From: Convolutriloba macropyga
Lineage: Eukaryota
Direction: 5' to 3'
Length of the DNA stretch: 64,000 nucleotides
NCBI RefSeq assembly: GCF_964194025.1
Contig: NC_134468.1
Span: 42,594,001-42,658,000, forward strand
Position 1 is the stretch's first letter; the number at the start of each line of letters is the position of its first letter. Under the pieces are notes generated by a model, which was not told where the DNA came from, did no database searches, and was given only the letters and a program-made list of their open reading frames with translations. The translations under genes and the position numbers were made by a program. Positions 2,211-64,000 of this stretch are shown piece after piece.

Positions 2211-2219
2211 CTATATGTC

Positions 2220-31344: not shown

Positions 31345-31396
31345 GATAGCCTGTGACAAACAATATAATTTTAATTTCAAGTATTCGCATTGCCTA

Positions 31397-32004: not shown

Positions 32005-32830
32005 CTAAAAATTTCTCCAGATCGCAACTATTAAGACCTTGAACGTTTTGTTTTTCTTTTTAACGTGGAAAGCATGCACGTGAGTGCTCAACAAAATTAA
32101 GGCTAAAATATGGCAAACTGGCAAAAACTATATCGTGAATTGACAGATTTAACTCTGAAAGTCACTTGAAAGTTGTAACCAATGTACATAATCGAGAGCA
32201 AACTTGAAAAATAGCAGTTAAATACGGAAATGAAAAATTTTCTCACTCCTCCAGGCACCGAAAATCCAAAAATTGTTTGAACACTGTTTTATTAATAATT
32301 TGTCAAATTAGTATTTGTTCCATTTGCAAAAAATTGAGTAGTCAAATTTAATTTTTAATTAACGTCAAAGCTCACCAAAGTGTGAAGAGATGCTGAATAA
32401 CTTAACAATACAAGCGCTGAAAAGCCATCCAACGAACCGTGCCTAAAAGGGATTGACGTTAGAGGTGTAAGTTGGCAAAAAATTCTTGAATTGGATGCTG
32501 CTTAACTAATATGACGCGAATGATTTAGGGAAAATCAACTTTTGAAAGAGCTTCTGTTGATGTTCTCAACAATTTGCCGACTCACCAAATAGCCAACCGA
32601 CCTAAGATGCTGGCTGAAAATAGGTAAAATGGCATAACTGACCGTTTTTGAACCGCATTTTCTGGTATTGGCCGTTATTGATTATTCATTTCTGACCCAT
32701 TGCGCTCCTAATACAAAAATTAACCGAAACAATAGATCGAAATTGACTAGCATAATGTCTCCATAAGTTTCTAAGGCACATTTCGGCGTGACAAGAAACA
32801 GTATCAAACTTTTGAAACGAGCCTTTTAAC

Positions 32831-38305: not shown

Positions 38306-38511
38306 TAGTCGCAATTTTGATATGATTTTTGATCACATGTAAAAAGTAAATTCATGATGTAAAACTGATGTTGACGTTTGTAACCTGAAACTAAAACATG
38401 CTAAATCAACAAGTAAAGCTTAAACAGAAATAGAAAGTCAGAATACGACCAAGGAAAAGCCAACGTCGTGTTCAGAAGAGAGATACTATTTAAAAACTCA
38501 ATAAAACCTTT

Positions 38512-38640
38512 AGTAGTGGATAAAACAAGGGATTCAACCACCAGCAAAATTTGTCCCTTTCTCCTAACGCTAATCGTGCATGTCGAATCGGGCCAAATTT
38601 TACTGTTTGTTGAACCCCCTTGTTTTATCCACTACCATAT
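38512..38640 (+). repeat. Left TIR (itself a hairpin)
   Basis: Reverse complement of ~55398-55525 with ~4 differences; first ~49 nt pair with last ~49 nt. Confidence 0.95.
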
Positions 38641-39125
38641 TCACCACTATAAATACATACTACACGCACAACTTTGTGTACAAGAATGTACATAGCTAGT
38701 ATAATTTATGCAATTCATACACTAATATCCAAAAGTTCTCAAAGCTAGATTTAAGCCTAATTTCATATTTAATATGCCAAACTATACTGAAATAAATCAG
38801 GTTAATCATCTCACAAAGTTTTTTTTCAATAGAATCGGATGGATTGAAAATAACTCAAAATTGCGTAGAACTGGATAATAAGAAACAAGTTTCTTTAAAA
38901 TTTTGACTTTAACCAGGAGACGATTGATCTATGATGTTTAACTGAGTGATTCTATGTACCTGGTTACATTTTTGAGCCGAGTCTTGGGAGGTCTTGTTAA
39001 AAGGTTGACTCGTCTTTACCACGCTACGGCAGTACTGCTCGACCTTTCTAAATGGCAACTGTGGGGGAGGGTGCAACTACAGAATGCTTGAGGGTAGTCC
39101 AATATTGAATCTGTCCAATATTGAA

Positions 39126-39527
39126 TTAAATCTGTCCAATATTGAATGAACAAGCAGATAAATATTCCGGCACATTCACTTCAAACTTGTCCATTGTTTC
39201 CTGATGCTCGTAACTTAGTAGGTCCTTCTTGAACTTGGAGAGGAACAACTGGAAGAGTTCTGTTTTAGTTCGTTTTCCAGTCTCACTTTCATGTTCGGCG
39301 GTGTTGTCGGGTATGCATTTGTTCTCCTTACAAAATGTAATCATTTGATTTGTTAAATTAGTCAACTCGTTTATATTTTCTTCAGATAAAGAAGTGGATG
39401 ATAAAGCTCCAGTTATTAAAGTCTCGTCAAATGACAAAAATTGTTTAAAATTTTTCGCTAGTTCTTGTAGTGAAGTGAAACTCATGATGAATAGCCAAAA
39501 AATGCCGTGGAGAATAAAGGTCCCCAC
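39126..39527 (-). CDS. Polinton hypothetical protein
   Basis: 133-aa ORF (probable ATG at MSFTS) inside the element; no recognised motif. Confidence 0.45.
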   Translation of the reverse strand: MGTFILHGIFWLFIMSFTSLQELAKNFKQFLSFDETLITGALSSTSLSEENINELTNLTNQMITFCKENKCIPDNTAEHESETGKRTKTELFQLFLSKFKKDLLSYEHQETMDKFEVNVPEYLSACSFNIGQI

Positions 39528-39970
39528 GTGGAGAATTATTCTAGAACATTCTTTTTTCTAGAATATTTTGACATGATTTTTAAGTTAAAATTAGTTATCA
39601 TTTCCCAAGTAATTACATGTTTTAAAGTAAAATAATAATTAAATCCTTCTATTAAATTGAATGATTTGTATAATCTATTAAAAATTAAATTAAGATTTTA
39701 ATAAATACTCACTTTACTAGCTAATTTTTAAGGGTGACTTACATTCGAAATTTTCACTTGTTTTCATTCTGTTAGTGGTGGTGGCATTCTTTGTCAATGG
39801 CGGCGGCCATTTTAGCATGACATGCACTTTTCATTCGATCTGCTAAGCAGTGTAATGCGATGTTAAACCAAGCTGGTTGACTTCTTGTACTATTAGTGGT
39901 TGCTAAATATGAAAGAAAGCGAACAATAATAGCACAGTCAAAAACACTGAGATCGGTGGAAACACAGTGA

Positions 39971-40204
39971 TTAGTGTTTTTCTATGTCTTCTTGAATACT
40001 ATACTTATAAACATGCTCTCTGAACTGATTTCTTGTGTGACCATATCTATATCTATGAAGATAAATACATAGTCTACATTTCCTATTTCTAAATCTATAT
40101 AATGATATATGTTTATAAACATTACACATACTGCACGTTAGATATTGATCAGGATCAGAATAATGATATCCCAAATGTTCTATATAATCTTTAACCTTAA
40201 CCAT
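39971..40204 (-). CDS. Small Polinton CxxC...CxxC zinc-ribbon protein
   Basis: 77 aa, CSMC and CRLC; A-rich start context (AAAAATATG); divergent from pPolB. Confidence 0.55.
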   Translation of the reverse strand: MVKVKDYIEHLGYHYSDPDQYLTCSMCNVYKHISLYRFRNRKCRLCIYLHRYRYGHTRNQFREHVYKYSIQEDIEKH

Positions 40205-40345
40205 ATTTTTACATACATAACAAGAATATTCTAATTCTTAACAATTATTACAACATTCTTTCCAAGGTTTATTTATGCATTTATTGCATTTCATTTTCAT
40301 TTTTCGAAAAATTAATTTTTGATTATTTCCCTAAATAAATACATC

Positions 40346-43300
40346 ATGTCTCAATCAACTAATACTAGTGTCATAAACTTCTGCGATGTCTGTAATCTAT
40401 CCTTTGAATCAAAGAAGGGTTTATACAGACACCAATCTTATGATCTCAAACATAAGGAACTATTGGAGAAAATGTTTGAGTCTGAAGAAGAAGAAATCTT
40501 GGAGAGGGTGTATAATCCGGATGAAGATGAATATATTATTAAAACTAGGGCTAAAACTAAAACAGAAACTAAATCAGAAACTGAAACTGAAAACAATATC
40601 TATTCTAAGATTAGGTTTATATGTAAAGAATGTCATGAAGAATTTTGAATTAAAGTAGCTCTAACTACTCATTCATATAGTCACAATCGCATGTATCTAG
40701 AAAACACAGAAGACTTCGATATAAACTCAAGTCAGAACATGAGAGAATTTTATATTACTGATAAAGGTGGGAATTACATTGAAGAGATAGATCAAGCAAC
40801 TGATTACTCTTTAGAAGAAATTAAAAACTGTTACCAGTTTCGTAAAGTTAGGAGTTTTAAATATAAGATCACGGCTGAATGTGATTATAAGAAGAGAACC
40901 AAAGAAGAAGAAGTTAAAACTACTAAAATATTTTTCAATACTGATTATATTAATAATAATGCAATATATGAATATGGTGACTTCAATCGGTGGCTAGATT
41001 TCGAAAAGGAAATATATGAAGGTTATGGTTATGATTTTGAGTTTCTTGGAATAAGAAGTATTCAGTTAAACATTGAACCAAGTAAAGCATCTATTGGTAG
41101 TTATATAGATTTACCTCCTAATCTCAAAAACTCTAAATCGATATTAAATATACGTAGGTATAAATACAACTGCTTACAACTAACTATAACTGCTTGGCTA
41201 CATCCCGCCCCACACCATGCAACTCGAGAAAGTAAGTATGTAGATAAACTAATTGAACCAAGACAACAACATGAAGATGGGTATACACACCTTGTGGTAA
41301 TGGTAAAATAGAATTGTTTGAACAAGTGGATGATTTTAATAAAGATAGAAAAGATGTAAGAATACTAGTTTGGAGTAATGGTCAAATAGAACACTGTGCC
41401 CTAATAAAAAATATAGGAACCTTGTTAGAACGACCAAATAAAAACAACATTAAATATTATTATTGTGATAGGTGTACCTATTGGTTTAACTCACAAATTA
41501 AATATGATAAACACAAATGCAGCACCTCATTCAAACCAGAGATTGTTTGTCCTAAGAAAAAACATATTACTTTTGTAAATGAGCACAAACGTCAGAATAT
41601 AAAAAATATTATAACTGCCGATATAGAATGTTGCATTACCGATGTCACAACTAATGACTGTAAATTTGTAATAGCTGAACATATTCCAATAGCTGTGGGT
41701 TACACCTGGCAAGGTAACTTCAAACACTACTTCGGTCTAGGCTGCATCAAAAGATTTGCTAGAGATCTGTTAGAAATAGAAACTGAGAATATTTTCAAAC
41801 ATAATGAAAAGATGATATTCACAGAAGAAGATAAATTATATCATGAAACTAATAACACTTGTCATATCTGCAGCAAAACATGTATTAATAAAGTAAGAGA
41901 TCACTGTCATGAAACTGGTAAATAAAGAGGACCAGCATGTAAAATATGCAATCTAAGATACAAACAACAAAACTTCATTCCAGTAATTTTCCATAATGGC
42001 TCTGGCTATGACTTCAACCTACTATACAGTGAACTCTTTAAACAGAATAATGATAAAAGAAAAGTAGATAACATACCACTAGCTGCTGGTAAATCTAAGA
42101 TGTTTAGCATTGGTTGTCTCAAATTCTTAGACAGTTATAACTTCTTAGCTATGCCTCTAGATCAAATGGCAAAGATATACGGATGTAAAACTAAAACATT
42201 ATATCCATATGAATACTTTGGTTTAGACTCCTATAATAATCTTATAGGTAATCTAAAATTAGAAGACTTCAAATCCTCTCTCTCGAATAAATTACCAACA
42301 CAAGAAGAAGTCGATATCTTTAATAAAGCCAACAGTCATAAAACTGGAAAAGATCTAACTATAGAGTATTTACAGAATGATGTGGAAATTTTAGACTATT
42401 GCATGAATGAATATGTTAAACTAAGTATGAAAGAATTCAAGCTCAATCCACTACATTACGTTAGTCTCCCGGGTTATAGTTTTGATTGTTGGTTAATGTC
42501 AAGCGGTGTAACATTAGATACATTACAAGATAAACAAATGCTAGATGATTTTGTTGGAGCAAAGAGAGGTGTTATATGTGCAATAATGGGTGATAGATAT
42601 ATAGATAACAGTGATGGTAAGACCATATGGTACATAGACAACCTATATGGTTATGCAATGATGCAAAAGTTACCTTATAAGGACTTTCAGTTTACTACTA
42701 CTACTCTAGATCCACGAACGGACTTCGTCCGTGGCAAGCGAAGCGGTTTCCTCGATACAATATTGAATACTCCAGATGATAGTGATCATGGTTACTATAT
42801 AGTTTGTGATATTGATTATACTAATGAATTTAAAGAGAGAACAGAACAGTTAGCACTAATGCCTAATAAGAGAAAGATAAATGATAATGAATTGGGATAC
42901 CGACAAAGAGAGAAAAGTAAAGCAAGATCCGAGAAATTAATCTTAGACCAAAACAAAAAAACAGAATATATGGTTCATTATAGGATGTTAAAGTTCTATG
43001 CTAAGATGGGAGTAAAAGTAACAAAAATACATAGAGTAATTAAATTTTAACAAGACTACATATGTAGAGATTATATCCAAAACAACACTAACAAAAAAAC
43101 AACAGCTAAAACTGAAGCAGAGAAGGATGTAAGGAAACTAATGAACAACTCACTATATGGAAGAATGTGCATGAATCCCTTACACTTCTTTCAAAGCAAG
43201 TTCTTGCATGATGAAGAAAAGATAATGAAAAGTATAAGTAAACCAACATTTAAGAATATAACTAGATATAAGGATTATAGCCAAATTGAATATATAAAGA

Positions 43301-44019
43301 AAAAAATAGAATATGACTCTCCAGCATATGTAGGTGTTACTATATTAGAATTAAGTAATTTACACATGTATGATGTATTCTATAATATTCTACAACCATC
43401 TCTCAAAAATCTACAACTCCATTATATGGATACTGATAGTTTTGTATTAAGTTTTACTGAAGGTAATGTCGACAATGAACACATGGATTTAAGTAATCTA
43501 GAGCCCCCTATCAAAACAAATAATAAAGTGCCTGGTAATTTCAAACATGAAATGGGAAGTAAGATCATAGAAGAGTTTGTGGCCTTAACACCAAAGACAT
43601 ATAGCTTTAAAGATTATCCCAACAAAACTGAAGAGAAAGGAATAAAGAATTGTAACAATGCTAAACATGAGGAGTATTATAATGCACTAATGTATAACAC
43701 AGAGAGAAGTGTAGATGAATGTAGAATACAAAAAGTTGGTGATAACATGACAACAACAAAAACAAGTAAGATAAGTCTAAACACATTTAATGATAAAAAA
43801 TTTTATGTAAATAATATTAAAAGCTATCCTCATGATGAGAATCTATATCTATTCAAAGGAGATTTAATAAAAATGATCCGCCAAGCATCAGTGAAACTGC
43901 TTCGCAGATCATTAGATGGAGACAAAGACCTACTGGTTAATAATATTCTAGAACTAACCATTAATGATGATAGAAAGTTGATTGAAGTTGCTATTATATT
44001 ATATAATGAGCTTTGTTAA
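40346..44019 (+). pseudogene. Protein-primed family B DNA polymerase with N-terminal C2H2 fingers and HNH/EndoVII-like insert; disrupted
   Basis: ExoI ADIEC, RDHCHETGK*RGPAC..CN insert, ExoII FHNGSGYDF, ExoIII YLQNDV, Pol A YID-NLYGYAM, Pol B KLMNNSLYG, Pol C YMDTDS; in-frame stops at 40646, 41923, 43048 and a break near 41280-41314. Confidence 0.93.
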
Positions 44020-44035
44020 TTTTTATAACAAATAA

Positions 44036-44356
44036 TTATAGACCTAATTCATTCATTACTTCCATATGGTTGGTAGTTAGTATATTATAAATCATTATCT
44101 GAGCCATATATTTTTCCATAATGTCTCCCATGATTGTATTCTTATGTAGTGTAGCTCCAGCTATTATATTTTTTTTATATTCTAGAAATTTTATTATCTT
44201 CCCAGCCGCATCTACATATTTAGAATAAATTGAAATTCTTAAATCATCATGATTTGGTTCCTTAATATGATCAATAAACTCATCTATAGTATTACAATGT
44301 CTTTTACAAGCTAAACATTTTTTTAGATTAAGAGAGAAGCTGTTTTCATTATCCAT
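44036..44356 (-). CDS. Polinton hypothetical protein with CxxC...H...H zinc-finger-like motif
   Basis: 106-aa intact ORF, CLACKRHC..F..HIKEPNH; AAAAAATG start. Confidence 0.6.
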   Translation of the reverse strand: MDNENSFSLNLKKCLACKRHCNTIDEFIDHIKEPNHDDLRISIYSKYVDAAGKIIKFLEYKKNIIAGATLHKNTIMGDIMEKYMAQIMIYNILTTNHMEVMNELGL

Positions 44357-44392
44357 TTTTTACTCTTATTATAATTTTTCAATACATAAAAA

Positions 44393-46254
44393 ATGACTAA
44401 ACTAGATAAACTTATAGAATTAAACAATCTAGACAAACAAAACAGAAGAAATAGATTAGAAGATAAATTAAAACAACAAGAATATTATTGTGAAATAGAA
44501 GAGTTATTCGATCCTTTAACTAAAACTTTAAATGAAAACACTGAACGGAATCTAGCATTAGGTGAACAAACATTAAGAGCAATAGATTGGCAAAATCAAG
44601 AGTTAGATAAACAAACTAAGATGATCGAGCAAGCTGGTTCCCAGTTTAATGAAACTGCTTCCAAGATTGGTGAAACGTTAAAGGGGACTCAAGATATAGC
44701 ACCAGTTTTTGTAGATACAAAGACAGCCAAACTTCTTCATGACATGGGGGCTCAAACTAATCCTCAATTAAAATTAGAACTCATAGATTTACCTACTAGG
44801 AGATATAAAATGAATGGTGTTGATATAACTCTAGAGAAGAGTGCATTTTTAGTTAGGGATAATGTATATGAGTTTTCAGAAGGATTTACTGATTTTCTTA
44901 CTAAATCAATTGTAACATATGATGATAATATTGAGGAAGATGAAAACAAAATTAAAAGGTTTTTAAAGGATATTAGATATGATTTAGTAAAGGGGATAAG
45001 AAAAGCGGTAGATATAGAACAATAAAACGTATAATGGAGGTAAAAGATGACGTATTTGGCAGGGGTTTAAATAGCAACCCAAACCCAAATAGTTTAATAG
45101 AAAGATTAGAATTATTAATACTGGAAACAAAAGCTGGTCATGATGGATTATATGATAAAATGCTAGATGTATCTAAGCAACTATTATCTATGAATATTAT
45201 TAATCAAGACCAACAAGATAATTTTGTTTTTAACTACGGTAAAATAGGTGAAATCATGACTACGTCCATGAGCAAGCTCACAACTTCGTTGATCAGTGGA
45301 CCTGCTTTGCAGATAGGTGAAACCATGACTACATCCAAAAAAAATGTGGAAAAACAACAAAAACAACAACAACAACATCAACAACAACTAGCTAAAGAAG
45401 TAATCAGTCCTCAAATAACAAAGTTTAAAAGACAAAGAATAATACCACTATATAAAGATGAAACATGGTCAGCTGATTTAATTGATAAGTCATTTCTAAG
45501 TAAATACAATAATAATTATAAGTTTATATTAACAGTTATAGATATATTCACAAAATATGCATCGGCTATTCCATTAAAGAATAAATCTGGTTTATCTATA
45601 ACTAATGGTTTTAAAACAATCCTATCAGAAGGACGAAAACCAGAAAAGTTATGGGTAGATAGAGGTAGTGAGTATTACAATAAAACATTTATATCTTTAC
45701 TTAAAGAATATGAAACCGGCAAAGCCGCTTCAGGGATATAGCTATATTCTACTTATAGTGATTTAAAGGCTGTGTTTATAGAGAGATTCAATAGAACAAT
45801 ATTACATATAATAAATAAACCAATGTTCATCAATGGTGATGGTAATTGGGTAAATATATTAAATGATGCGGTCATAACATATAACAATAACATTCATTCA
45901 ACAACTAATATGACACCAGTTGATGCTTCTAATAATCCTGATAATGTTAAATACACTTTTAGTTTTAAGAATATTAAACCCAAACTTAACGTTGGTGATT
46001 ATGTTAGAAATGTAGATAAACGTAATATCTTCTCTAAAGGTTACGCTTCTAATTGGAATAGAGAATTGGTTAAAGTTAATGAAGTTCTAAAAACACAACC
46101 ACCAACTTATAAAATAGGAGATATTAATGGTGAGAAAATAGAAGGTAAATATTACGAACAGGAATTATTAAAATCTGAGTTTGATTTTGAATCTAATAAT
46201 AAAGTTTTAGAATCATTAAATATATTTCTTAAAATTAATAATGACAAGAAATAG
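44393..46254 (+). pseudogene. Retroviral-type (rve, DDE) integrase, probably fused to an upstream coiled-coil/core-like domain; one frameshift (~44990) and one stop (45739)
   Basis: WSADLID, VIDIFTKY, LWVDRGSEYYN, IERFNRTI catalytic motifs; C-terminal VGDYVR..KGY..NW..YYEQEL domain; upstream LFDPLTK and LIERLELL..KAG segments. Confidence 0.9.
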
Positions 46255-46951
46255 ATTCAATCAAGCTAAACATAAATCAACATCAACATCAACAAACAAC
46301 TTAACACTAAGTAAGGCTCCTGGGTTATTCCTAGAAGATAATGATGATATTGATATGAAGGATACCTATAAAATTACAAATGTTCATCCTCCTAGAGATG
46401 AAAAAGATGTTGTTAATAAAGAGTATTGTGACAATAACTTATTATCCTCTTCTAATAAAATAGACATTTTAAGTAGAAACATAACTGAACTAAGAAAGGG
46501 TGACTTTGATAAAGTTACAACTAAAACGTTACAACTAAATGAAACACAAGTTAATGAAGAACTAATTAATGGGTTTATTGAATCAACAAATGAAGTCAGA
46601 AATACTGTTAAGTTTTGTAATAAAGTTGCTGCAGATACTATCTCTAAATATAATTATTTGAAGCAAGAATTTGATAAGATTAAGTTTAATCAGAATATAA
46701 CTAACATACACTTAGATGAAATGTTTACTAACGGTCTGAGAGAAATGAAAGAATACAATAAATCTCTTAGAGGTGTTATAGTACAATATATAATTGCTAT
46801 ACTTTTACAAACTAAGTTACTTGATAATAAAGAGAAAGACAGACTTGAGATGCATTATAGTTTTAATCGAGAAGATATAATGAAAGAAATAGAAAGAATT
46901 TTTACTAATGAAAATCAGCAAAGCAATGACCAATCCAACAGCACCGAGTGA
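46241..46951 (+). CDS. Polinton protein with fibre-repeat-like motif
   Basis: DIDMKDTYKITNVHPPRDEKDVVNKEYCD resembles the D-A/V-x-N-K-x-Y-V-D fibre repeat; intact 236-aa ORF. Confidence 0.55.
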   Translation: MTRNRFNQAKHKSTSTSTNNLTLSKAPGLFLEDNDDIDMKDTYKITNVHPPRDEKDVVNKEYCDNNLLSSSNKIDILSRNITELRKGDFDKVTTKTLQLNETQVNEELINGFIESTNEVRNTVKFCNKVAADTISKYNYLKQEFDKIKFNQNITNIHLDEMFTNGLREMKEYNKSLRGVIVQYIIAILLQTKLLDNKEKDRLEMHYSFNREDIMKEIERIFTNENQQSNDQSNSTE

Positions 46952-47474
46952 GAGATTACTATATCCAGATTTGTCATCAGTATCAGAAAGATTAATAAAC
47001 GAAAAGATACAAGCTAATAATAAATTCAACAATAATATTAACATTATAAAAGATATTAGAAATTATTATAAAACTGAAACTAATAACTATAATAAGAAGT
47101 TAAGTAGATATAAGAATTATATTAACATAGCTGAGATAACAGAAATAGTATTATCATCAATAGCAACAACTGCAACAACAACATCAGTTTCATTAACATG
47201 TATAGGGTTAGCTTATTCTATACCAACAGCTTTTGCTACAGCAACTGTTTGTGGTTCATTATCAAAAACAATTAATACTAAAATTAGAAATAAAATTATA
47301 AAGTATTCACAAATGTATATTTCAAGTAAACAGTTTAGTGATAAATTTAATAAACTATATACTAAATCAATAAATGATAATAAAATAGATAATGATGAGT
47401 ATATTGATTTTGTTAAGTTATATGAGGATTATAAGAAGAATAAGAAAAACAGGCTGAGTATTTTTTTAGATTAA
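46926..47474 (+). CDS. Polinton helical/hydrophobic protein with N-terminal PTAP and LYPDL motifs
   Basis: MTNPTAPSERLLYPDL, coiled coil, then a ~45-aa uncharged stretch (IVLSSIATT...TVCGSL). Confidence 0.7.
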   Translation: MTNPTAPSERLLYPDLSSVSERLINEKIQANNKFNNNINIIKDIRNYYKTETNNYNKKLSRYKNYINIAEITEIVLSSIATTATTTSVSLTCIGLAYSIPTAFATATVCGSLSKTINTKIRNKIIKYSQMYISSKQFSDKFNKLYTKSINDNKIDNDEYIDFVKLYEDYKKNKKNRLSIFLD

Positions 47475-47608
47475 AGATATTAGTGCTTAGTAATAACAAT
47501 GTTTTTAGTTATAATAATATTAGTATTAATATTTATCGATAAATATATAATCATAATCTTAGTTATAATCATAATCATAAACATAATATAATCATAATAT
47601 AATCATAA

Positions 47609-48064
47609 TCATAAACATAATATAATCATAATTATAATCAAATAATTATCTTTTTTTGTACCTAAGTATAACCCTCTTCCTTTTTGTACTAATTTTATAC
47701 CTTCACCAGTAGTTGCAAATTTAATTAAATCAGGTTTGGCTGCTAAAGCAGCTCTAGGGTTTCTAGATGCAGCTGCACTTCCTATTTTACTTGCTATTTC
47801 TAATGCTCTTACTGGATTATGAGCTGCCTTCTTTCCAAAGTTAACTGTAGCCCTAACAACACTTTTAAAGAAATCTTTAAGTACTTCTGCTTCTATTGTT
47901 GCATCAGATACTGTCATTGATTTATTCCTTCTACATAAAACACAATTACCTTTTAACATCTTAGTTTCTTTTGAAGTAATAGCTCCTCTTATATTAACAG
48001 AACCACTGTAATGTCTACCTCCAACACAATATGAATTAGTTTTGAACTTATTTAAAAGACTCAT
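47609..48064 (-). CDS. Putative virion core/membrane-active protein (zinc ribbon + amphipathic helix + GxG motifs)
   Basis: YC....H...GNCVLCRRNKS zinc-ribbon-like N-terminus; LKDFFKSVVRATVNFGKKAA amphipathic helix; GEGI and KGRGLYL. Confidence 0.65.
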   Translation of the reverse strand: MSLLNKFKTNSYCVGGRHYSGSVNIRGAITSKETKMLKGNCVLCRRNKSMTVSDATIEAEVLKDFFKSVVRATVNFGKKAAHNPVRALEIASKIGSAAASRNPRAALAAKPDLIKFATTGEGIKLVQKGRGLYLGTKKDNYLIIIMIILCL

Positions 48065-48082
48065 TTCTATATATAAAAAATA

Positions 48083-48244
48083 ATGGAAGTTAAAAAGTAT
48101 AATCCCTTTGTTGTTATTAAGCCTAAGCCTACGGGTTCCACCCGCGAGCGAAGCTCGAAGACTGAGCCTAAGCCTAAGGTTAAGCCCAAGCCCAAGGTTA
48201 AGCTTGAAGCTAGAGGCTTGGCTCTAGAGAATAAAAAAAATTAG
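48083..48244 (+). CDS. Small basic KP-repeat peptide (possibly frameshifted)
   Basis: MEVKKYNPFVVIKPKP...EPKPKVKPKPKVK; TATATAAAAAATAATG start context; below ORF-track cutoff. Confidence 0.35.
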   Translation: MEVKKYNPFVVIKPKPTGSTRERSSKTEPKPKVKPKPKVKLEARGLALENKKN

Positions 48245-48496
48245 ACATTATTTATGCTAAAGGTTTTGTTAATACTAATAAGAAATAGTTAGGTATTAAC
48301 AAGAGTAACAATTAGAGCTGACTAGCTATAAATATAAGTATAAGTATATGGTTATGTATAAGTATTAGTATATAATTATAACAATAACTATATTATACTA
48401 TAATTATAAATTATCGCTAGAGTTATATCTAAAATTATAATTATCGCTAGAGTTATATCTATGATATACCTTCACCTTATATCTATGATATACCTT

Positions 48497-49901
48497 CTAC
48501 GAGATTATATCAACCATCTTAATACCATCACTATTCACACTAATAACCTTCCTAGTTAATACTAATGCATGACATATAACATCTGCAACTGCAGCACTAA
48601 ATTTAAAATTAAGTTGTATTGGTTGTTGTTGTACACACCATGATATATCTCTAATTTCTATATTACCATCATTGGCAACTGCACCAGGATTAGCATTAAC
48701 TCTATATAGAGCTCTATCATTATTATTCCTTTTTAATTTTAGTTTAAATCCTAAACCATATATAAGCTTTTCTAAATCATTTACGAAACCAAATAGATCA
48801 CTTTGATATCGAGTATCAAATACATATATTCTATAACTACTCTTGAATGTTCTATGATTTATATATGGTTTTTTATTATGTGGTAGCCCATTATAGTCTT
48901 TATTAAAGCTAACAATCTCTTTAAAAGCATCATTATAATTATTAGTTCCATAATTAATATTTATTCTATCCTCGGGATAAAAACCCACTACCAATCTTAC
49001 AATAACATTCAGTAACATTCATTACATCAAATGTACTTGCATCATGAGTTAGCTCATTAACATTATTATTTTCAAAACCAACTATAATATATTGTGGTCT
49101 TTCCATACCACTTTCCATACCTAGATCAAACAAGAAGTTAGTAGCATTGGGTACATTCTTATAAAATGTCTTCCTTTCATAATAACTAAAGTCTACATTA
49201 TTCTTTTTATTCAAAACCCTTTTGCACAATAATTCTATTGTCATTACTAGGATCAATACTAGGTACACAACATGATATATCTCTAATTTCTATATTACCA
49301 TCATTGGCAACTGCACCAGGTTTAGCATTAACTCTATATAGAGCTCTATCATTATTATTCCTTTTTAATATTAGTTTAAATCCTAAACCATATATAATCT
49401 TTTCTAAATCATTTACGAAACCAAATAGATCACTCATTCTTAATCATCATATACATATGTCCTCGTTGTGCAGCAATATGGTCACCTCTAAGTTGACTAT
49501 CTCTATTGCCCTGATTTCTAACAAAACCACTCATATTCATCACCAGTACTAGTTAATAATTTATATATCAATAGATTGGGATGACAATGATCTATATATT
49601 CAATAGTCCTACCACCACTAGTCTCAAGTTTAATTGAACTGAATAATGCCATCATACCATAATTAACTAATCTAATATCAGCAAATATCATTAGCAAATA
49701 CACCACCAGCATAATCTGATACAACTCTATCTCTAGATTTGAATCACGCAAATTTAGGTGACTCTCTTCTCTATTGAGTATGATATTAATATTGGTATTA
49801 ACCGTATTCATTGTTGCTAGATTATTAGGTTTATATTTTATAATCTTACTTTTATGTATATCATTATTATAACCATAAGTTGTATCCAAATTAAAATCCA
49901 T
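48497..49901 (-). pseudogene. Major capsid protein (double jelly-roll), frameshifted, with a 172-bp internal duplication
   Basis: Collinear fragments: LVNYGMMALFSSIKL..IEYID; LFGFVNDLEKIIYGLGFKLIL.RNNND; PQYIIVGF..STFD; YPED; IYVFDTRYQ; PIQLNF..HALVL. These match the Polinton/adintovirus MCP pattern. Confidence 0.82.
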
Positions 49902-49917
49902 TTTTATTAGATAAAAA

Positions 49918-50759
49918 ATGAGAGACAATTTAATGTTAAGAGAACTACAAAATATACACGAAGCTTTAACTGAAACTAAAGAAGAGTATACACTTAACTT
50001 TAGAATGATAAAACTAACAGAAAAGTTTAACTTTAGTGAACCTATACTTAATACAACAAAATTAGGTTCAATTAGATTATCTGTTTATAATTCGGTGTTT
50101 AATGTGAATAGGAGAAATAATCAATTCTTATATGCTAGTACTGTTATAGAAGATGATGAAGCTTTACCTCGGGTTCTCAGCTCTGTTCCTAACCTTAACC
50201 CTATCTCTACCTCAAGCCCAAACATTAAATCTATACTTAACCATAATTATAAAGGAATCCCGTTGCTATATTCAACTATTACACCGGGAGCATATGAGTT
50301 AACTGACATAGCAGAATTAATAAAAGAAGAAATTGATGGTAATGTTGTAATAGAACCTGATAAGAATACGATGAAATGTTTAATGGAAATAAAACAAGGA
50401 GCACTCAGCTTTGATATAGAAAACTCACTAGCCTCATTCTAGGATTTGGAAAAATAATTTATAAAAAAGGTAGATATAAATCTCAGAAAATTATTGATAT
50501 TATGGGTTTTAGTACTATTAACATTCATTGTAATGTGATATCTGGAGCTAAAGATAATGGTAAAGATACAGACATACTATATACTTTTAATCTAACTGAA
50601 CCACCAGGTTACTTGATAAATATAATACCAACTATTATCTTGTATCAAAATGTAAATAAAGATAGAATAGAATATATAGAATTTCATATTAAAGATGAGC
50701 ATGGAAGACCTATAGACTTTAATGGTGATGTATTAAGTTTTACTTTACATTTGATTTAG
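49918..50759 (+). pseudogene. Minor capsid protein (penton, single jelly-roll), one frameshift ~50440
   Basis: YNSVFNV..NNQF, ITPGAYEL, LGF, INIHCNVISG, PPGYLI..P..Y, DEHGRPIDFNG motifs. Confidence 0.85.
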
Positions 50760-51005
50760 ACTTATACTTATACTTACACTTAGACTTATCTGTGAAGCAG
50801 GTTCCCTGATACTTATACCTATAGTTATTTGCGAAGCAGGTTCCCGATACTTAGACTTGTACTTAGACTTACACTTATCTGCGAAGCGGGTTCCCTGATA
50901 CTTAAACTTATACTTATCTGCGAATCAGGTTCCCGATACTTAGACTTGTACTTAGACTTACACTTATCTGCGAAGCGGGTTCCCTGATACTTAAACTTAA
51001 ACTAA
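50760..51005. repeat. Convergent intergenic array: hexamer repeats alternating with 25-bp GCGAAGC-hairpin units
   Basis: (ACTTAG/ACTTAT)n interleaved with 5 copies of TATCTGCGAAGC(A/G)GGTTCCC(T)GATA. Confidence 0.8.
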
Positions 51006-51006
51006 A

Positions 51007-52395
51007 CTACAAAACTCTCCGATCCCAATTAATTCTTAGTTTACCATTAACATTTTTATTTTTAGTTATATCAATGACAATATAATTATAAGGCTCTTTC
51101 CATACCTTATTACATATATTAGCAAAATCGTTATAACTAAGTTCAACATTATTAAAGAAATCTTGATATATAGATATGAGGACTTTACCTCTCTGTTCAA
51201 ATAAAATAAATAGATTACAGTTCCCTCTAACACTCTGCCTATCCAGAGAGAACAGGTTTTGATTAAGATATATCATATTACAGTTATTATGTCTACCTCT
51301 ACAAAAGTATTCATTAATAACTGGTTCTTTGGCTCTAACATCATCGAATATCATTAGTTTCTTTAAGTCTTTGGGTAGTTTATCGGGAGATGGCAAATCT
51401 TTTATATCTTTAATAAATTCAACATCTGCTTTTGGGTTTATTCTTTCTATACCATGGTACTGATCACCAGTAGGTCCAATGATGTATAGCTTATCAAAGT
51501 ATATACTAGCTAGAATTAGTTTTTTCAATAAGAATGTCTTACCACATTCACTAGGACCAGATATTATACATCTAAAGTTATCTGGGAATGCGGCTTCAGT
51601 AATTATATCATCATCATTTAACCATAAATATAGATCATCATTTATGTTTACAAATATCGGTGAAACCGCTTCACGGATATTATTAGTAGGACTATTACTA
51701 ATGCTATTACTATTTCTATCCCTATTAGATTTACTCCTTTGATATTTTTCATCAAATAGATATATAAAATTATCATTATCATTATCATTATCATTATCAA
51801 TGACATTATCCTTATCATTAACATTATCATTATCATTAACATTATCATTATCATTACTAGTAAAGCTACTTCGTAGATCATTAACATTATCATTAACATT
51901 ATCCTTATCTTTATCACCACCTCTACTACAACTTAAACAAGAACACTCATTATATATTCCTGGATATTTACATTGATTAACTAGAATATTCAAAGCACTT
52001 TTAATTCTAAATCCTCTATCAATAAGATAGATCATATATAAACAATAAGCCCCACAATAAGATTCATCATATTGTTGTATTCCCTCATTAGAGCCTAGAT
52101 CAACATATTCTTCTAAAAATAAAGGTGGAGTTTCTACACCAAAACTATCAAAGTAATATGTTGGACCACCTTCTCTTCTTATAACTAAAACGCAATGTGT
52201 ACCTTCAGTTGGATGTAGATTTACAATAATGTTAGAGTTAGGTTCACTTACCATTTCTGGTTTATCATCTCTCATTACAATCTCAATAGGTGTTAGACTT
52301 ATATCTTTACCTATATCTTTTATTCTGATACCACTCATAGCATTATTATCAATATTAAATTTATTATTGAATTCCACAAAAGTTAGGATGAGCAT
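51007..52395 (-). CDS. Adenain-like cysteine protease fused via a DN-repeat linker to an A32/FtsK-like packaging ATPase
   Basis: Protease GTH, YFDSFG, IQ..SYCGAYC; ATPase Walker A GPSECGKT, Walker B LMIFDD, RGRH, LNQ, VRGN; uninterrupted 462-aa ORF. Confidence 0.9.
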   Translation of the reverse strand: MLILTFVEFNNKFNIDNNAMSGIRIKDIGKDISLTPIEIVMRDDKPEMVSEPNSNIIVNLHPTEGTHCVLVIRREGGPTYYFDSFGVETPPLFLEEYVDLGSNEGIQQYDESYCGAYCLYMIYLIDRGFRIKSALNILVNQCKYPGIYNECSCLSCSRGGDKDKDNVNDNVNDLRSSFTSNDNDNVNDNDNVNDKDNVIDNDNDNDNDNFIYLFDEKYQRSKSNRDRNSNSISNSPTNNIREAVSPIFVNINDDLYLWLNDDDIITEAAFPDNFRCIISGPSECGKTFLLKKLILASIYFDKLYIIGPTGDQYHGIERINPKADVEFIKDIKDLPSPDKLPKDLKKLMIFDDVRAKEPVINEYFCRGRHNNCNMIYLNQNLFSLDRQSVRGNCNLFILFEQRGKVLISIYQDFFNNVELSYNDFANICNKVWKEPYNYIVIDITKNKNVNGKLRINWDRRVL

Positions 52396-52479
52396 TTTTA
52401 TATAATAAATTTATTAAATCTAAGTCTAATTATAAGTCTAAGTCTAAATCTAAATCAAATCTATATTTATTATATAAAA

Positions 52480-54230
52480 ATTGAAACAGGTAGTGCAGTT
52501 TTTGTTTTTATTATTATAATTGGCATTTGTTATATAATATATGATTCAATACCAAGTAAATATACAAAACTAGAAGAAAGCTTTGGTGGATTTATGAATA
52601 GGAGTCTAGTTAGATTTGAATATGAAAAGTCACCACTACATACTTTTGTTTATGGTGGAACTGGAACGGGTAAAACATATTTTATTAGACAATACTTATA
52701 GTTATACTTAGACCATGATCAAGTTCAAAATCAAGTTCAAGATCAAGTTCAACATCAAGTTCAAGATCAAGATCAAGTTCAAGATCAAGTTCAAGATCAG
52801 GTTCAAGATCAAGTTCAACATCAAGTTCAAGATCAAGATCAAGTTCAAGATCAAGTTCAAGATCAAGTTCAACATCAAGTTCAAGATCAAGTTCAAGATC
52901 AAGACCAAAGGTCCATAGTTATAGTTTGTAAAGATGACAGAGACTGGATAGATCCTGAGTCTAATAAGTTTTATACTGGGTTTAATAAATGTGATATAAA
53001 TATGATCACAAAAAATAATATGCATAAGTTTCAAAATTGTGTAATAGTACTTGATGATATGGGTGACAGGTTAAATAAGGATATAGCTTATTATATTGCT
53101 GAAGGTAGACATTATAATTTTCAAATGATTGTAATGTGTCATAAACCAGCTCAAATAATTAATACAGCAAGAATGAGTTGTGATACTATTTACCTAACAA
53201 CTTATAATGGACCTGACCTATTTAAAAACTTTAATGAGATATATAAATTTGAAATGACTTCAATAAAATAATTAGTGAATTAAATAGTAACTATTATAAT
53301 TGTACAGATGGAATGTCAGATGAACTTCGCTATGGTATAATTAAATATAATAAAAAGGAAAATACTTTTATTATTATTAGTAATAATAGAACAATGATAT
53401 ATGATTCAAGAGTTGGTTTCCTTGATTTAAAAGCTCTTAGTTTAAAAGATGATTTAGAAAGAGAAGATATAAATAAACTTATAGCATATATGATGATTAA
53501 TGCAACAGATAGAAATGTTATTAATCATGATAATTATCAGTTTTATTTTAATAAACTTCTTACTTTAAAAAATATTAAAATTCAGAATGATGTTTTAACA
53601 AAAGAGATGATTAAGGGAAATGGGTATGAAAATTTTATCAAATATTGGTGGAATTATAGGCACAGGTTTATTTATATTTAATTGTTTTTATCCTGATTCA
53701 ATATCAAGAAATGCTGGAACTGTAGCAATGGGAGCAAGTACAATGTTGAGTAGAGTAAATACATTAGTTAATGTTGGATATGGAGAAGAGTTGGAAGGTG
53801 AAACACGAACAAAGTCCGATTCTTCGATCTGCGAAGCAGGTTCCATGATCCAAGAGGAATATATCGATCGGGGAAGCAGTAATACTGATCAGGGAAGCAG
53901 TTATACTGTGTAACTGTGACTTCGTATCAGCGTAACTGTGACTTCGTCAATGAAGAGATGGGAATTTTGAATAGAAAGGGAGGAAAGTTTTTAAACAAAC
54001 TATATATAAATAATGAAGAATTTAGAGAAGAGATTATAAATTTTGTTAAAGATAAAAAAGACTTAGACCTTGATTTGATCTTAGATAAGAGATGTAAAAC
54101 TAATACACTCAATACTTTAGGAAATAAATATTTAGCAGAGTTTATCACATCTAAAGATAATACTAAAGATTTAATTGAAATCATGGCTAAATATTATCCA
54201 CAAAGTTTGTACACCGATTCTACAGCATAG
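52480..54230 (+). pseudogene. Second A32-like ATPase with N-terminal hydrophobic anchor, DQVQ repeat insert and long C-terminal extension; disrupted
   Basis: Manual translation from 52480 (ATT in the ATG position after TTATATAAAA): ETGSAVFVFIIIIGICYIIY...VYGGTGTGKT, stop at 52699, (DQVQ)n, in frame with VIVLDDMG..EGRH..MCH..TARMS (53002-53271); downstream fragments linked by frameshifts (inferred). Confidence 0.75.
52717..52908. repeat. 12-bp/6-bp tandem repeat GATCAAGTTCAA (encodes DQVQ)
   Basis: Directly visible; preserves the ATPase reading frame. Confidence 0.95.
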
Positions 54231-54347
54231 CTAATATTATCTGCGAATTTGCAAAACAACTCAGTTGAGCAGTTTGGTAAACCATGAACAAAGTTCGTTC
54301 GAGAACCACGAGCAAAGCCCAATCACTGATAATTTTATCTATTAAAA

Positions 54348-55199
54348 ATGCTTTTACAATGTTTAGAGTGTAACTATAAATGTGGAAACATTGCTGTTTT
54401 AAAATATTATTATGAATCATTTCATAAAGATAAAACTGATAAATGCATGTGTGGTAATATAATATTAAGTGGCATTTGTGCTAATGATTTTTCCCCATGG
54501 GGTTGTTCTTTAAAAAATGAATCTAGTTCTAGTTCTAATTCTAGTTCTAACTCTAGTTCTAATTCTAATTCTAATTCTAGTTCTAACCCTAGTTCTAGTT
54601 CTAACCCTAATTCTAACTCTAGTTCTAACCCTAGTTCTAGTTCTAGTTCTAGTTCTGGTTCTGGTTCTAACCCCAGTTCTAGCTCTAGTTCTGGTTCTGG
54701 TTCTATCTATGACTATAACTCTTACTCAGATCCTAACCCTAACCCTAACCTTATCCCTAACCCTAACTTTAACCCCAGCTCAGAAGTATTAACTAGATGC
54801 TGTAATAAGTGTAATTATATAAAACCACTAAATAATTTTGATGAGGGTAAGTAAACATGTAGAAGTTGTACTTCAGCTAAAGTTAATTGTCCATATTGTA
54901 CTTCTGTTGTGAGATATGATGGGATATGGGCTCATGTAAAGAAACAACATCCAGATATAGAATTGACTAGAGGATTTAGTAGAAATATAACTGATCGGTG
55001 TAACCGCTTCGCGGATAAAACAATTAATCCTAGTTGCCCAAGTCCTAGAGCTGTAAGTCCTTTAGTTAATAACCAAACAGAGGAAAATTGTTCATGTAAA
55101 TACTATAATTTTGTATCATTTCTTATTAATAATGGAATAAATATAGAAAAAATAAAAGAAAATATAAATTTATTGAAAAGTATAGATAATTTGAAATAA
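54348..55199 (+). pseudogene. Cys-rich multi-zinc-finger protein with S/N/P hexamer-repeat linker; one in-frame stop at 54852
   Basis: CLEC, CMC, CNKC, then read-through TCRSC..CPYC...HVKKQH in the same frame as 54909-55199. Confidence 0.65.
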
Positions 55200-55397
55200 A
55201 AAGTATAAAAAATAAAAAATGTCAAAAAAGAAGGATTCACTCTTTAAGAGCGAAAAAGAGCGATCTTTTCTACTGGGGATCACTCCGAATAAGAGTGAAT
55301 CACTCTTAAAGAGTGAAATGTAAATTTTGCTTTAATTTTTTGATTTTTTGTTTTTTTTTTGATTTTAATTGATTTTTTTATTGAATTTAGAGCTAAT

Positions 55398-55525
55398 ATA
55401 TAGTAGTGGATAAAACAAGGGATTCAACAAACAGTAAAATTTGGCCCGATTCGACATGCGCGATTAGCGTTAGGAGAAAGGGACAAATTTTGCTGGTGGT
55501 TGAATCCCTTGTTTTATCCACTACT
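55398..55525 (-). repeat. Right TIR (itself a hairpin AGTAGT...ACTACT, 55402-55525)
   Basis: Inverted copy of left TIR; followed by TSD ACCTTT. Confidence 0.95.
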
Positions 55526-55769
55526 ACCTTTGATTTCATAATGAAAAAGTTTTGAAGAAGGTTAACATAAGATGACATGCCCTAGTTCAACTCCAACTAT
55601 TATCTTGCAAGTTCTGGCAAGATTTATGCCTTTGATCGTTAGCTTGCAAGATCGTGCCACGAATTTTTCAAGACTCAATCTTGCTTATGATTAGGCACAA
55701 TCTTGCGACACAACAGTCGGTTTTTGACTATTGTTAATTGTTGATAGTATGCTTTAAACATGCTTTCAC

Positions 55770-57989: not shown

Positions 57990-60900
57990 TGTTTTTCAAA
58001 AACAATGGCCCCCCAATTGTTCCACTTACTACCGTGGACAATTTGCTCAAAAAGATTTTTCAGCTCACAATTAGCGCTTTGAATTTGAATAAAAAGTTAC
58101 CGTTTTTTCTCAGAAGAATCCCTCCAACTGTTCCAAACATTACCGTGGACAGTTTGATGTGACAATAAATAAGAGTTTTATTATCTCACAATTAGCGTTA
58201 TGCCTTTGAATAAAAAAGTTCTGTTCTCTTCTGTCTAATAGTTTTGAAGTTTTTGTCCAAATATGGTTTTCTTTATTGTTGTGTTTTTTTATGGTTTACT
58301 GGTTCGCTTCAATTTTATTGGAAATGATTTGAAAATCAAAAAATTTCAACAAATTTCAGAACAAACATTTCCAATTTCTCATTTTTTTCAGGCTTCAAAT
58401 GAGACATCTCGAACTTCAATTTCAAATCACTCTACTACTCTAGTTTTTCAGGGAAAAAAGAGCGCTATAACTCTTCTGACCTATCATATGCAGATGTATA
58501 ACTTTTGCATTGTGTACGTAAAATTGTGCTTCTTCCATGATCATTTTTTTTCTTTGAATTTTTTTTTTTGCAGGGGTTTAATCCCTATGTCACATTACGG
58601 ATCCGCTTTCTGGACATTACGCCTTTCATAAGATTTATAGTAAAGTAACGATAAAAGTTCGCAAGCAGACTAGATTCTGATAACATGTTTGTTTTGACAA
58701 TAGAAGCCAGCTCTTTCAAGTTCTGCAACCTTCCATAATCTACTCTACTTTTCTCGCCGTCAAACAATCTAGCTCAACTTTTTGCTGAGAACGCTATCAT
58801 CGGAACCATTTTGACAACTTTAAAGTAAAAAAAATACCCTTGTGCCTCTGTTTACCGGTCAATTACAATGGAGCCTATCGATTTCCAATCCGAAGAAATA
58901 ACCGAGTTCCATTCCACATGAAAATTTGTATAAAGTATGCTTCCAGCGTAATAAACAAATTTTGGAGGTTTTTGTTCACAGATTAATTGACTTTCAATGG
59001 TCGGAGGGAACGTATTTTATTCTATAAGTATTATTTTTCCGAAGAATCCCTCCAACTGTTCCAAACATTACCGCAGTCGGTTTGATGTGACAATAAATAA
59101 AATAAATAAGAGTTTTGTCATCTCACAATTAGCGTTTTGCTTTTGAAAAAAAAACACTTCTCGTCTGTCTAATAATTTTGAAGTTTTTGTCCACGTGTTG
59201 TTTTCTTTATTGTTGTGTTTTCCTTTTATAGTTTACCGGTTCGCTTCAAGTTTATTGAAAATGATTTGAAACTCAAAAAATTTCAACAAATTTCAGAACA
59301 AACATTTCCAATTTCTCATTTTTTTCAGGCTTCAAATGAGACATCTCGAACTTCAATTTCAAATCACTCTACTACTCTAGTTTTTCAGGGAAAAAAGAGC
59401 GCTATAACTCTTCTGACCTATCATATGCAGATGTATAACTTTTGCATTGTGTACGTAAAATTGTGCTTCTTCCATGATCATTTTTTTCTTTGAATTTTTT
59501 TTGCAGGGGTTTAATCCCTATGTCACATTACGGATCCGCTTTCTGGACATTACGCCTTTCATAAGATTTAAAGTAAAGTAACGATAAAAGTTCGCAAGCA
59601 GACTAGATTCTGATAACATGTTTGTTTTGACAATAGAAGCCAGCTCTTTCAAGTTCTGCAACCTTCCATAATCTACTCTACTTTTCTCGCCGTCAAACAA
59701 TCTAGCTCAACTTTTTGCTGAGAACGCTATCATCGGAACCATTTTGACAACTTTAAAGTAAAAAAATACCCTTGTACCTCTGTTTAACCGTCAATTACAA
59801 TGGAGCCTATCGATTTCCAATCCGAAGAAATAACCGAGTTCCATTCCACATGAAAATATGTATAAAGTATGCTTCCAGCGTAATAAACAAGTTTTGGAGG
59901 TTTTTGTTCACAGATTAACTGACTTTCAATGGTCGGAGGGAACGTATTTTGTTCTATAAGTATTATTTGTCCGAAGAATCCCTCCAACTGTTCCAAACAT
60001 TACCGCAGTCAGTTTGATGTGACAATAAATAAAATAAATAAGAGTTTTGTCATCTCACAATTAGCGTTTTGCTTTTGAAAAGAAAAACACTTCTCGTCTG
60101 TCTAATAATTTTGAAGTTTTTGTCCAAGTGTTGTTTTCTTTATTGTTGTGTTTTCCTTTTGTAGTTTACCGGTTCGCTTCAAGTTTATTGAAACTGATTT
60201 GAAACTCAAAAAATATCAACAAATTTCAGAACAAACATTTCCAATTTCTCATTTTTTTCAGGCTTCAAATGAGACATGTTGAACTTCAATTTCAAATCAC
60301 TCTACTACTCTAGTTTTTCAGGGAAAAAAGAGCACTATAATTCTTCTGACCTATCATATGCAGATGTATAACTTTTGCATTGTGTACGTAAAATTGTGCT
60401 TCTTCCATGATCATTTTTTTTCTTTGAATTTTTTTTGCAGGGGTTTAATCCCCATGTCACATTACGGATCCGCTTTCTGAACATTACGCCTTTCATAAGA
60501 TTTAAAGTAAAGTAACGATAAAGAGTTCGCAAGCAGACTAGATTCTGATAACATGTTTGTATTGACAATAGAAGCCAGCTCTTTCAAGTTCTGCAACCTT
60601 CCATAATCTGCTCTACTTTTCTCGCCGTCAAACAATCTAGCTCAACTTTTTGCTGAGAACGCTATCATCGGAACCATTTTGACAACTTTAAAGTAAAAAA
60701 AATAACTTTTTGCCTCTGTTTAACCGTCAATTACAATGGAGCCTATCGATTTCCAATCCGAAGAAATAACCAAGTTCCATTCCACATGAAAATTTGTATA
60801 AAGTATGCTTCCAGCGTAACAAACAAGTTTTGGAGGTTTTTGTTCACAGATTAACTGACTTTCAATGGTCGGAGGGAACGTATTTTATTCTATAAGTATT

Positions 60901-63900: not shown

Positions 63901-64000
63901 CTAGATTCTGATAACATGTTTGTATTGACAATAGAAGCCAGCTCTTTCAAGTTCTGCAACCTTCCATAATCTACTCTACTTTTCTCGCCGTCAAACAATC
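57990..64000. repeat. Tandem satellite, ~935-bp unit, >6 units, runs off right edge
   Basis: AACATTACCG at ~58137, 59064, 59997, 60932, 61874, 62812 (spacing ~927-942), then a truncated unit (63367); one GGATCC per unit. Confidence 0.92.

Follow-up and report, generated by a model that had tools for sequence, protein, structure and literature searches.

The window analysed here, a stretch of 64,000 nucleotides of Convolutriloba macropyga DNA (contig NC_134468.1, positions 42,594,001 to 42,658,000), carries a Polinton/Maverick copy of 17 kb that contains many short GC-rich repeats able to fold into hairpins. The most abundant of the families described here, which we call family A, is a mobile micro-element. 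It has a fixed size, adds 21 bp at AT-like targets with a mild preference for the context G-AT-C, overwrites the two target bases, is confined to Polintons, and is filtered at the level of the proteins in which it lands. On balance, we favour an account in which this non-coding unit of 23 nt replaces a 2-nt target within the Polintons of this host and is copied by template switching of their protein-primed DNA polymerase (pPolB).

Mobility, abundance and structure of family A

We compared sister alleles by projecting the flanks between copies and by pairwise BLAST. The 631 copies represent 282 sites, of which 130 have an empty allele relative to which the filled one is 21 bp longer; the flanks are near-identical at 85 sites, and 65 are both clean and non-redundant. 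At these 65, filled and empty alleles differ by exactly 21 bp, a presence/absence polymorphism among sister Polintons of the kind that the preliminary description of this DNA had proposed to look for. Identical 23-mers recur between unrelated flanks, two of them being the most frequent variant at 54 and at 44 sites. In an unbiased census of indels, 61 of the 159 GC-rich non-tandem sites of 15–33 nt were of 21 nt, and 26 were of 24 nt.

The direction of the change can be read from the polymerase. In three conserved blocks of pPolB compared with a profile of 70 distant polymerases, the empty alleles agree in length with these outgroups (0, −3 and −2) and the filled ones are 5–7 residues longer (+7, +5 and +5; three variable loops were uninformative on polarity). 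Peptides derived from the element occur in 41 of 120 close pPolBs and in none of 142 distant ones. The motif is real, and the element is an insertion. Elements are also disrupted by nested inserts and lost through deletion, and for no site could filling be demonstrated in every one of the 22 complete Polintons (at best 19 of 21).

The motif sequences listed in the preliminary description were all present where it had placed them, and counts inside and outside the Polinton were compared with shuffles, as it had proposed. Counting stems of 4 bp or more, the Polinton has 14 GNA-triloop hairpins, about ten-fold more than dinucleotide shuffles (1.4 ± 1.2), whereas the window's 47 kb of host DNA have 2, versus 6.6 in shuffles. 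When three or more G/C are required in the stem, the Polinton has 10 versus 0.03 and host DNA 0 versus 1.6. The repeat is thus short, GC-rich and hairpin-forming within AT-rich DNA, as is typical of mobile palindromic micro-elements. A degenerate 23-nt pattern of family A gave 5,060 exact matches in the genome and none for the reversed control. In the chromosome-1 stretches fetched first, 68 of the 85 exact matches lay inside Polinton-like DNA and the others no more than 850 bp away. Of the full set of 93 stretches (1.818 Mb), 1.47 Mb lie no farther than 1 kb from Polinton-like DNA and contain 381 exact matches; the remaining 345 kb of non-Polinton DNA, all of it flanking sequence, contain none. 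Each of the 22 complete Polintons has 8–19 copies, and family A is also found in a second pPolB lineage, about 24–30% identical to the first.

The element also occurs in contigs of sequencing runs labelled as two other organisms (contigs labelled as organisms C and D cover the stretch thinly and were left out). Contigs of these two runs, X6 and X9, span this Polinton at window positions 40650–47450 and differ from it by gains and losses of 21 bp; the X9 contig has a family-A insert at 46275 and none at 43887. The full pattern matched viral contigs twice, both times in GC-rich coding DNA of phages and in our judgement by chance, in a collection from which records close to this genome may have been excluded. 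A looser pattern gave 104 matches in viral contigs, of which one combined all four structural features, as a single copy in a context of 59% GC. A tighter pattern matched no metagenome contig, in a collection that may likewise lack records close to this genome. The C-terminus of pPolB found no relative among viral contigs, and our search for RNA records of the pPolB stretch returned none.

The unit has AT at both ends, and its net gain of 21 bp corresponds to seven codons; the preliminary description had recognised a real double hairpin and overestimated its length at about 25 bp. The copy at 43887–43909 reads AT CAG T GAA A CTG C TTC G CAG AT. The architecture is AT-X-loop-X'-loop-X-AT: a three-base arm is followed by its reverse complement and by the arm again, so that two hairpins share the middle arm. 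Their GNA loops lie on opposite strands, as had been proposed; a structure-only scan found both GNA loops on the same strand in none of 184 context-variant pairs. The loop of the first hairpin is closed by T-A, G-C or C-G, mostly by the former two, and C-G closure is usual only in the second. Hairpins of the C-GNA-G type are very stable, and the C-G closing pair has been tied to the extra stability in the accessible part of the source (PMC3201870). Single copies have ordinary folding energies (z of −0.2 to −1.5, except at 51653) under a model that may give GNA triloops no bonus.

We assessed covariation and structure with pattern and structure scans. Arms change as whole triplets: CAG at 191 of the 282 sites, CGG at 57, TGG at 25 and TAG at 9. 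Among 80 isolated non-redundant sites, positions 6 and 10 pair at 73, positions 4 and 12 at 71, and positions 12 and 20 at 72, the last two with the qualification that the search pattern restricted positions 4, 12 and 20 to purines or pyrimidines; the same pairs have means of 38–44 and maxima of 49–56 in shuffles. The covarying stems are thus confirmed. Because a few master variants dominate, these counts reflect few independent changes that were copied often. The structure is constrained, most simply because only variants that fold correctly spread.

Family A was said to be inserted in frame within viral genes, and this is the case. Of 52 sites in genes whose two flanks are both in frame, one has a stop, which is a point change, whereas 12.0 would be expected by random register (P = 1.2e-5). 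The unit has at least three stop-free registers, usually four or five. Its density differs between genes: exact copies are missing from 115 kb of major capsid sequence and number one in 68 kb of the putative minor capsid gene, while the main pPolB, the integrase, the ATPases and two other open reading frames (ORFs) have 0.2–0.9 exact copies per kb. Among small ORFs, three more have no exact copy and two have fewer than 0.1 per kb. The scarcity of stops and the absence of exact copies from the capsid gene suggest that insertion took place while the Polinton proteins mattered, and we infer that it occurs in replicating Polintons and is not a product of decay after integration.

A second family, B, accompanies the first. 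It consists of AA, a triloop hairpin with a 5-bp stem, one base, a small hairpin with a 2-nt loop, and AA; it adds 24 bp, its stems covary, and it has 1,483 genome matches versus 1 in the control. It lies inside the loop of family A in 23 of 30 contexts. The triloop of family B is found either way round in one and the same stem (TTC/GAA, TTT/AAA), which indicates that strand switching at hairpins occurs in this system. Sister Polintons contain further families of hairpin inserts, with net lengths of 21, 24, 27 or 33 bp and ends of AT, AA or a single base. Orphan half-elements are mostly nested inserts or decayed copies, and no longer element with the same ends was evident among the 32 left and 35 right contexts that are commonest. 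We found neither coding capacity nor a linked transposase, longer elements with these ends having been scanned in 1.0 Mb of fetched DNA.

Target sites and the mechanism of movement

At the 65 clean sites, the commonest empty dinucleotide is AT at 45, differs from AT by one base at 19 and by two at 1 (background of 13%, 45% and 42%). The neighbouring bases G (preceding) and C (following) occur at about twice their background frequency (0.34 versus 0.15). The nearest empty allele is non-AT at 19 of the 65 sites, when about 2 would be expected from the 1.4% divergence of the flanks, and 18 of these 19 are filled as AT..AT. Nine of them lack any AT empty allele (e.g., 31 GT, 19 GT or 18 TT instead). 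Ends are occasionally mixed, with AC..AT where the target is AC and GT..AT where it is GT, and some AT empty alleles resemble reversions by slippage. Since non-AT targets are filled as AT..AT, the element usually supplies both ATs and replaces two bases of the target, and the junctions are explained neither by a genuine duplication of the target nor by insertion within A|T as in Helitrons. Empty targets fold slightly better than the background (−1.85 versus −1.26 kcal/mol, n = 34), which is not decisive.

Protein-primed polymerases copy linear genomes by strand displacement, exposing long single strands. In the template-switching account, a donor copy would fold into its hairpins on the displaced strand during Polinton replication. 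A nascent 3' end would pair with it through 2–4 nt (AT, GAT or ATC), copy the unit and return, overwriting the target dinucleotide. Filled alleles would then spread by recombination among co-replicating Polintons, and slippage between the ends of the element would sometimes delete the unit. The length of seven codons, together with at least three stop-free registers, would allow copies to persist in genes. The initiating nick might come from the EndoVII-type domain that sequence similarity points to within the polymerase.

Several observations weigh against this account or soften the data behind it. Template switching alone explains neither the precision of both ends nor the presence of element-type ATs at GT, TT or AC targets. 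Homology between flank and element beyond one base per side is barely above background, which offers little for a template switch, and the symmetric G-AT-C preference also fits an enzyme. Unsampled AT alleles or haplotypes, or later conversion, could explain part of the 19 non-AT cases, a few of which sit in a microsatellite context. Some of the 52 genic sites are perhaps duplicates. Finally, the fetched stretches were picked on matches to the terminal inverted repeat (TIR) or to the motif, and the 345 kb without copies are flanking DNA, not a random sample.

The main rival is a selfish micro-element moved by cutting and joining, which we regard as doubtful. Here, the EndoVII-type domain or the integrase would cut a slipped double hairpin so as to leave a 2-nt stagger, and the 21-bp piece, with self-complementary AT overhangs, would be ligated into a staggered break at an AT-like site, mismatches being repaired. 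A candidate nuclease exists: an unbroken sister pPolB matches the Endonuclease_7 domain (E = 9e-8) and aligns weakly to EndoVII of phage T4 (E = 0.058), and the motif D-H..N is retained in 52 of 54 matched copies. The element is dyad-like, presenting AT and then a GNA hairpin on each strand, mixed ends do occur, and the frequent entry of family B into the family-A loop is also in line with this scheme. However, the nuclease motif is present in 88 of 142 distant pPolB homologues, all devoid of element peptides, and is therefore general in the polymerase clade and not tied to the element. Inserted HNH-type nucleases are known in Polinton/Maverick pPolB, as far as the accessible parts of two studies describe them (bioRxiv 10.1101/2023.08.22.554363; PMC11161782), and together these facts suggest that the domain is permissive only. 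The integrase produces 6-bp duplications, and sticky ends predict mostly mixed ends at non-AT targets, where 18 of 19 are AT..AT.

The preliminary description had considered two roles for the motif: a tiny selfish palindrome spreading within the virus, or a cis signal acting in protection, priming or packaging. The former is strongly supported by the precise 21-bp polymorphism at many unrelated sites, the identical variants at 54 and 44 of them, the occurrence in two polymerase lineages, the nesting, and the exclusive use of stop-free registers. A site-specific signal is not supported, as no site was shown to be universally filled, copy number varies and the major capsid gene has no exact copies. 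It is possible that the hairpins confer a diffuse benefit of dose. Along these lines, we consider it unlikely that they are beneficial signals for single-strand protection, pausing, priming or packaging that are kept in bulk despite the turnover of sites. Every one of the 22 complete Polintons has 8–19 copies, the stems covary while the GNA loops are retained, and the C-GNA-G hairpins are very stable in what is accessible of PMC3201870. Yet positions are not conserved in all copies, with no site shown to be universal, a capsid region of 3–4 kb is depleted, the hairpins are broken by nested inserts and lost by deletion, and related polymerases elsewhere do without them.

Helitrons have 5'-TC, a subterminal hairpin and 3'-CTRR at their ends. 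Read on the reverse strand, family A has the form A|TC...hairpin...CYRA|T, and its ends agree with this pattern in the CAG and TAG variants (TC..CTGA/CTAA at 200 of the 282 sites, by arm counts), while the CGG and TGG variants end in CCGA/CCAA (82 sites). A minimal Helitron-like or HUH-mobilised element, moved by a host RepHel or Rep on single-stranded Polinton DNA, might be envisaged, and we deem it very unlikely. The genome has 90 matches to Helitron_like_N and 15 to Viral_Rep, and Helitrons enter between AT or TT without duplication, according to the accessible part of PMC10288648. But such movement predicts outer bases derived from the target, which fits 46 of the 65 targets and fails where 18 of 19 non-AT targets are overwritten. 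Moreover, copies are absent from the 345 kb of flanking non-Polinton DNA, and none of 14 representative Polinton ORFs has an HUH domain. Separately, the Viral_Rep (CRESS-like) matches include two tandem arrays of units of about 1.9 kb (C5:7950797-7962448 and C9:39884870-39896672).

A local artefact, by fold-back or slippage from the flanks or by assembly error, is extremely improbable: some copies are indeed tandem or locally amplified (50788–50988), but the identity of 23-mers across unrelated flanks rules it out for the dispersed copies, and matching 21-bp gaps and inserts are found in independent runs labelled as other organisms. We also rejected a miniature inverted-repeat or other DDE transposon, as the terminal repeats are too short (only AT(C)..(G)AT, the third pair being lost in the TAG and TGG variants) and there is no target-derived duplication at the non-AT targets, 18 of 19 of which are filled as AT..AT.

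The host Polinton and its copies in the window

The surrounding genome has 1.18 Gb and animal-like genes. The Polinton lies on the forward strand at 38512–55525 (17,014 bp), starts with AGTAGT and has several broken frames. It is flanked by a 6-bp target site duplication, ACCTTT, at 38506–38511 and 55526–55531, and shows the features of its class: TIRs starting with AG, a 6-bp duplication, pPolB, integrase, capsid and ATPase. Both TIRs, of 126 bp each, are long imperfect palindromes that form one hairpin: the left one (38512–38637) folds at −33 kcal/mol and the right one (55400–55525) at −47 kcal/mol with DNA parameters. A genome search with the terminus gave 1,553 candidates, of which 40 scored 99–100% identity. 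Both ends were found within 20 kb in 21 of the 30 neighbourhoods fetched at TIR matches, with 19 exact target duplications and 2 with one mismatch. Complete sisters are 88–91% identical to the copy in the window.

The genes are in pieces: pPolB at 40346–44019 and a retroviral-type integrase at 45034–46254, both on the forward strand, and the double jelly-roll major capsid gene on the reverse strand at 48497–49901. On the same strand, the ORF at 51007–52395 includes a P-loop ATPase part, and its N-terminal part is presumably protease-like. The EndoVII-type domain of unbroken sisters lies inside pPolB (L028:3295-7104, aa 490–535), which corresponds to about 41850–41960 in the window. An ORF of 240–266 residues without Pfam family is found near the left end (window 39126–39485; L004:4376-5101) at 12 loci and is missing from other copies. 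Coding microsatellites based on 6 bp and of highly variable length occur in Polinton ORFs (window 52700–52910, 54520–54790 and 51760–51900). Elsewhere in the genome, Polintons at L068, L076, L082 and L096-L097 have integrase and capsid genes 65–87% identical to these and a different pPolB (about 24–27% identity), an apparent exchange of polymerases between Polintons as judged from sequence comparison. L094-L095 contains a large inverted arrangement in which the second pPolB lineage occurs twice, in opposite orientations, alongside a divergent ATPase. L064-L066 (G000:C1:272000-289000) is a tandem array of 2–3.4-kb units from a Polinton end, with two adjacent elements per unit. The host repeats in the window (58000–64000, 1–7000 and 28600–35100) comprise tandem units of about 935 bp, units of about 350 bp and a direct duplication of 4.16 kb.

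Several copies lie in frame in the genes. In pPolB, a reverse-strand family-A element (42710–42756) has a family-B element (42717–42742, forward strand) nested in its loop, with sister alleles shorter by 21 and by 42/45. The forward copy in the pPolB C-terminus (43887–43909) reads SVKLLRR and has 7 empty sister alleles and 12 with a nested insert of 24 bp. On the forward strand too are a decayed copy upstream of the integrase core (45292–45314) and an older one within it (45715–45737; ends AC..AT; 15 empty sister alleles). A forward copy with CGG arms (51656–51678) lies in frame in the reverse-strand ATPase ORF. Apart from these in-frame copies, the family-A element with CGG arms and a GTA loop (54994–55016, forward) is nearly fixed in close sisters, with one empty allele.

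The five reverse copies reported between 50787 and 50990 are indeed five (starting at 50788, 50827, 50877, 50916 and 50966), but they form a local tandem amplification (50788–50988) in which two are 1 nt short and of which sister alleles have 1, 2 or 3 copies. Three more reverse-strand copies are found at 53827–53910, one at 53827–53849 and decayed ones at 53867 and 53888. The hairpins initially listed as single are present, but most of them belong to inserts. That at 42718 is explained by the family-B unit nested in the reverse family-A loop, and that at 51866 is part of a TAG-arm variant of family A (51856–51878, forward). Those at 45281 and 48145 sit inside other polymorphic inserts on the forward strand: a 24-bp AT-ended double hairpin (45268–45293) and a GC-rich two-hairpin insert (48131–48157; 2 sites). 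The hairpin at 53939 lies inside an older compound kept by most sister alleles. Some small hairpin inserts are nested three deep, as in the reverse-strand compound at 54239–54330, a family-A element with nested inserts of 21 and 24 bp (family B at 54274–54299).

Relation to other mobile palindromes and significance

Likenesses to GC clusters, double-hairpin elements and Rickettsia palindromes concern behaviour only, as taken from the accessible parts of their descriptions. The GC42 clusters of yeast mitochondrial DNA (PMC4478555) share with family A the nature of GC-rich palindromic micro-elements in AT-rich DNA, a 2-nt target (AG in GC42), units that merge, filled alleles that spread through recombination and the lack of a known mobiliser. 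They are 42 nt long, lie in mitochondrial DNA and have a putative target site duplication; here the gain is 21 bp, non-AT targets are overwritten, the overlapping hairpins face opposite strands, and the hosts are nuclear Polintons. A 2-nt duplication of the GC42 type does not fit the AT..AT filling of 18 of 19 non-AT targets or the 9 sites without an AT empty allele. The double-hairpin elements of fungal mitochondrial DNA (Allomyces, Schizosaccharomyces; PMC10085805, PMC2800124, PMC7218506) also have two small, potentially mobile hairpins; the examples described are intergenic or sit within rRNA genes, and no flanking duplication is reported for Allomyces in these accounts. Family B likewise has two adjacent hairpins, whereas those of family A share an arm, exclude each other on a given strand and are routinely translated in frame. 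Rickettsia palindromic elements are roughly 100–150 bp long, compared with 21 bp here, and lie in a bacterial chromosome instead of Polintons. They too are selfish palindromes tolerated in frame in protein-coding genes, as the accessible part of PMC6649704 describes them. Helitrons and Replitrons share the definition by hairpins, the AT target, the lack of a classical duplication and the single-stranded substrates (PMC10288648, in part); family A differs in its overwritten target, its confinement to Polintons and the failure to find a coding partner.

We found no description of such Polinton inserts in the literature, which was mostly judged by titles and the beginnings of abstracts and covered journals without subscription. 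In the text available, the preprint on nematode Polintons (bioRxiv 10.1101/2023.08.22.554363) contains neither 'hairpin' nor 'palindrom', and PMC11161782 attributes domains in pPolB to invasions by inteins and assigns them no role in moving hairpins. Family A is thus apparently an undescribed family of micro-elements of the mobile palindrome kind.

The movement of tiny palindromic repeats such as yeast GC clusters, fungal double hairpins and Rickettsia palindromes is still unresolved in the parts of the literature cited above. One genome with hundreds of Polinton copies, in which filled, empty, nested and reverted alleles coexist, makes the rules of the junctions directly readable, and they show overwriting of the target without duplication. 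The set of candidate enzymes is small: one polymerase with a nuclease domain and one integrase. A mobile element is here restricted to another mobile element, and a second one nests in the first. The inserts supply viral proteins with peptide loops in frame, and their sites can serve as markers to date Polintons and map their recombination. More tentatively, Polintons may host a layered community of hairpin cassettes of 21 and 24 bp, free of transposases, propagated by the viral polymerase, perhaps with its EndoVII-type domain providing the priming, crossing lineages, parasitising each other and writing loops of 7–8 residues into proteins. If so, these cassettes would be among the smallest self-propagating units of DNA.

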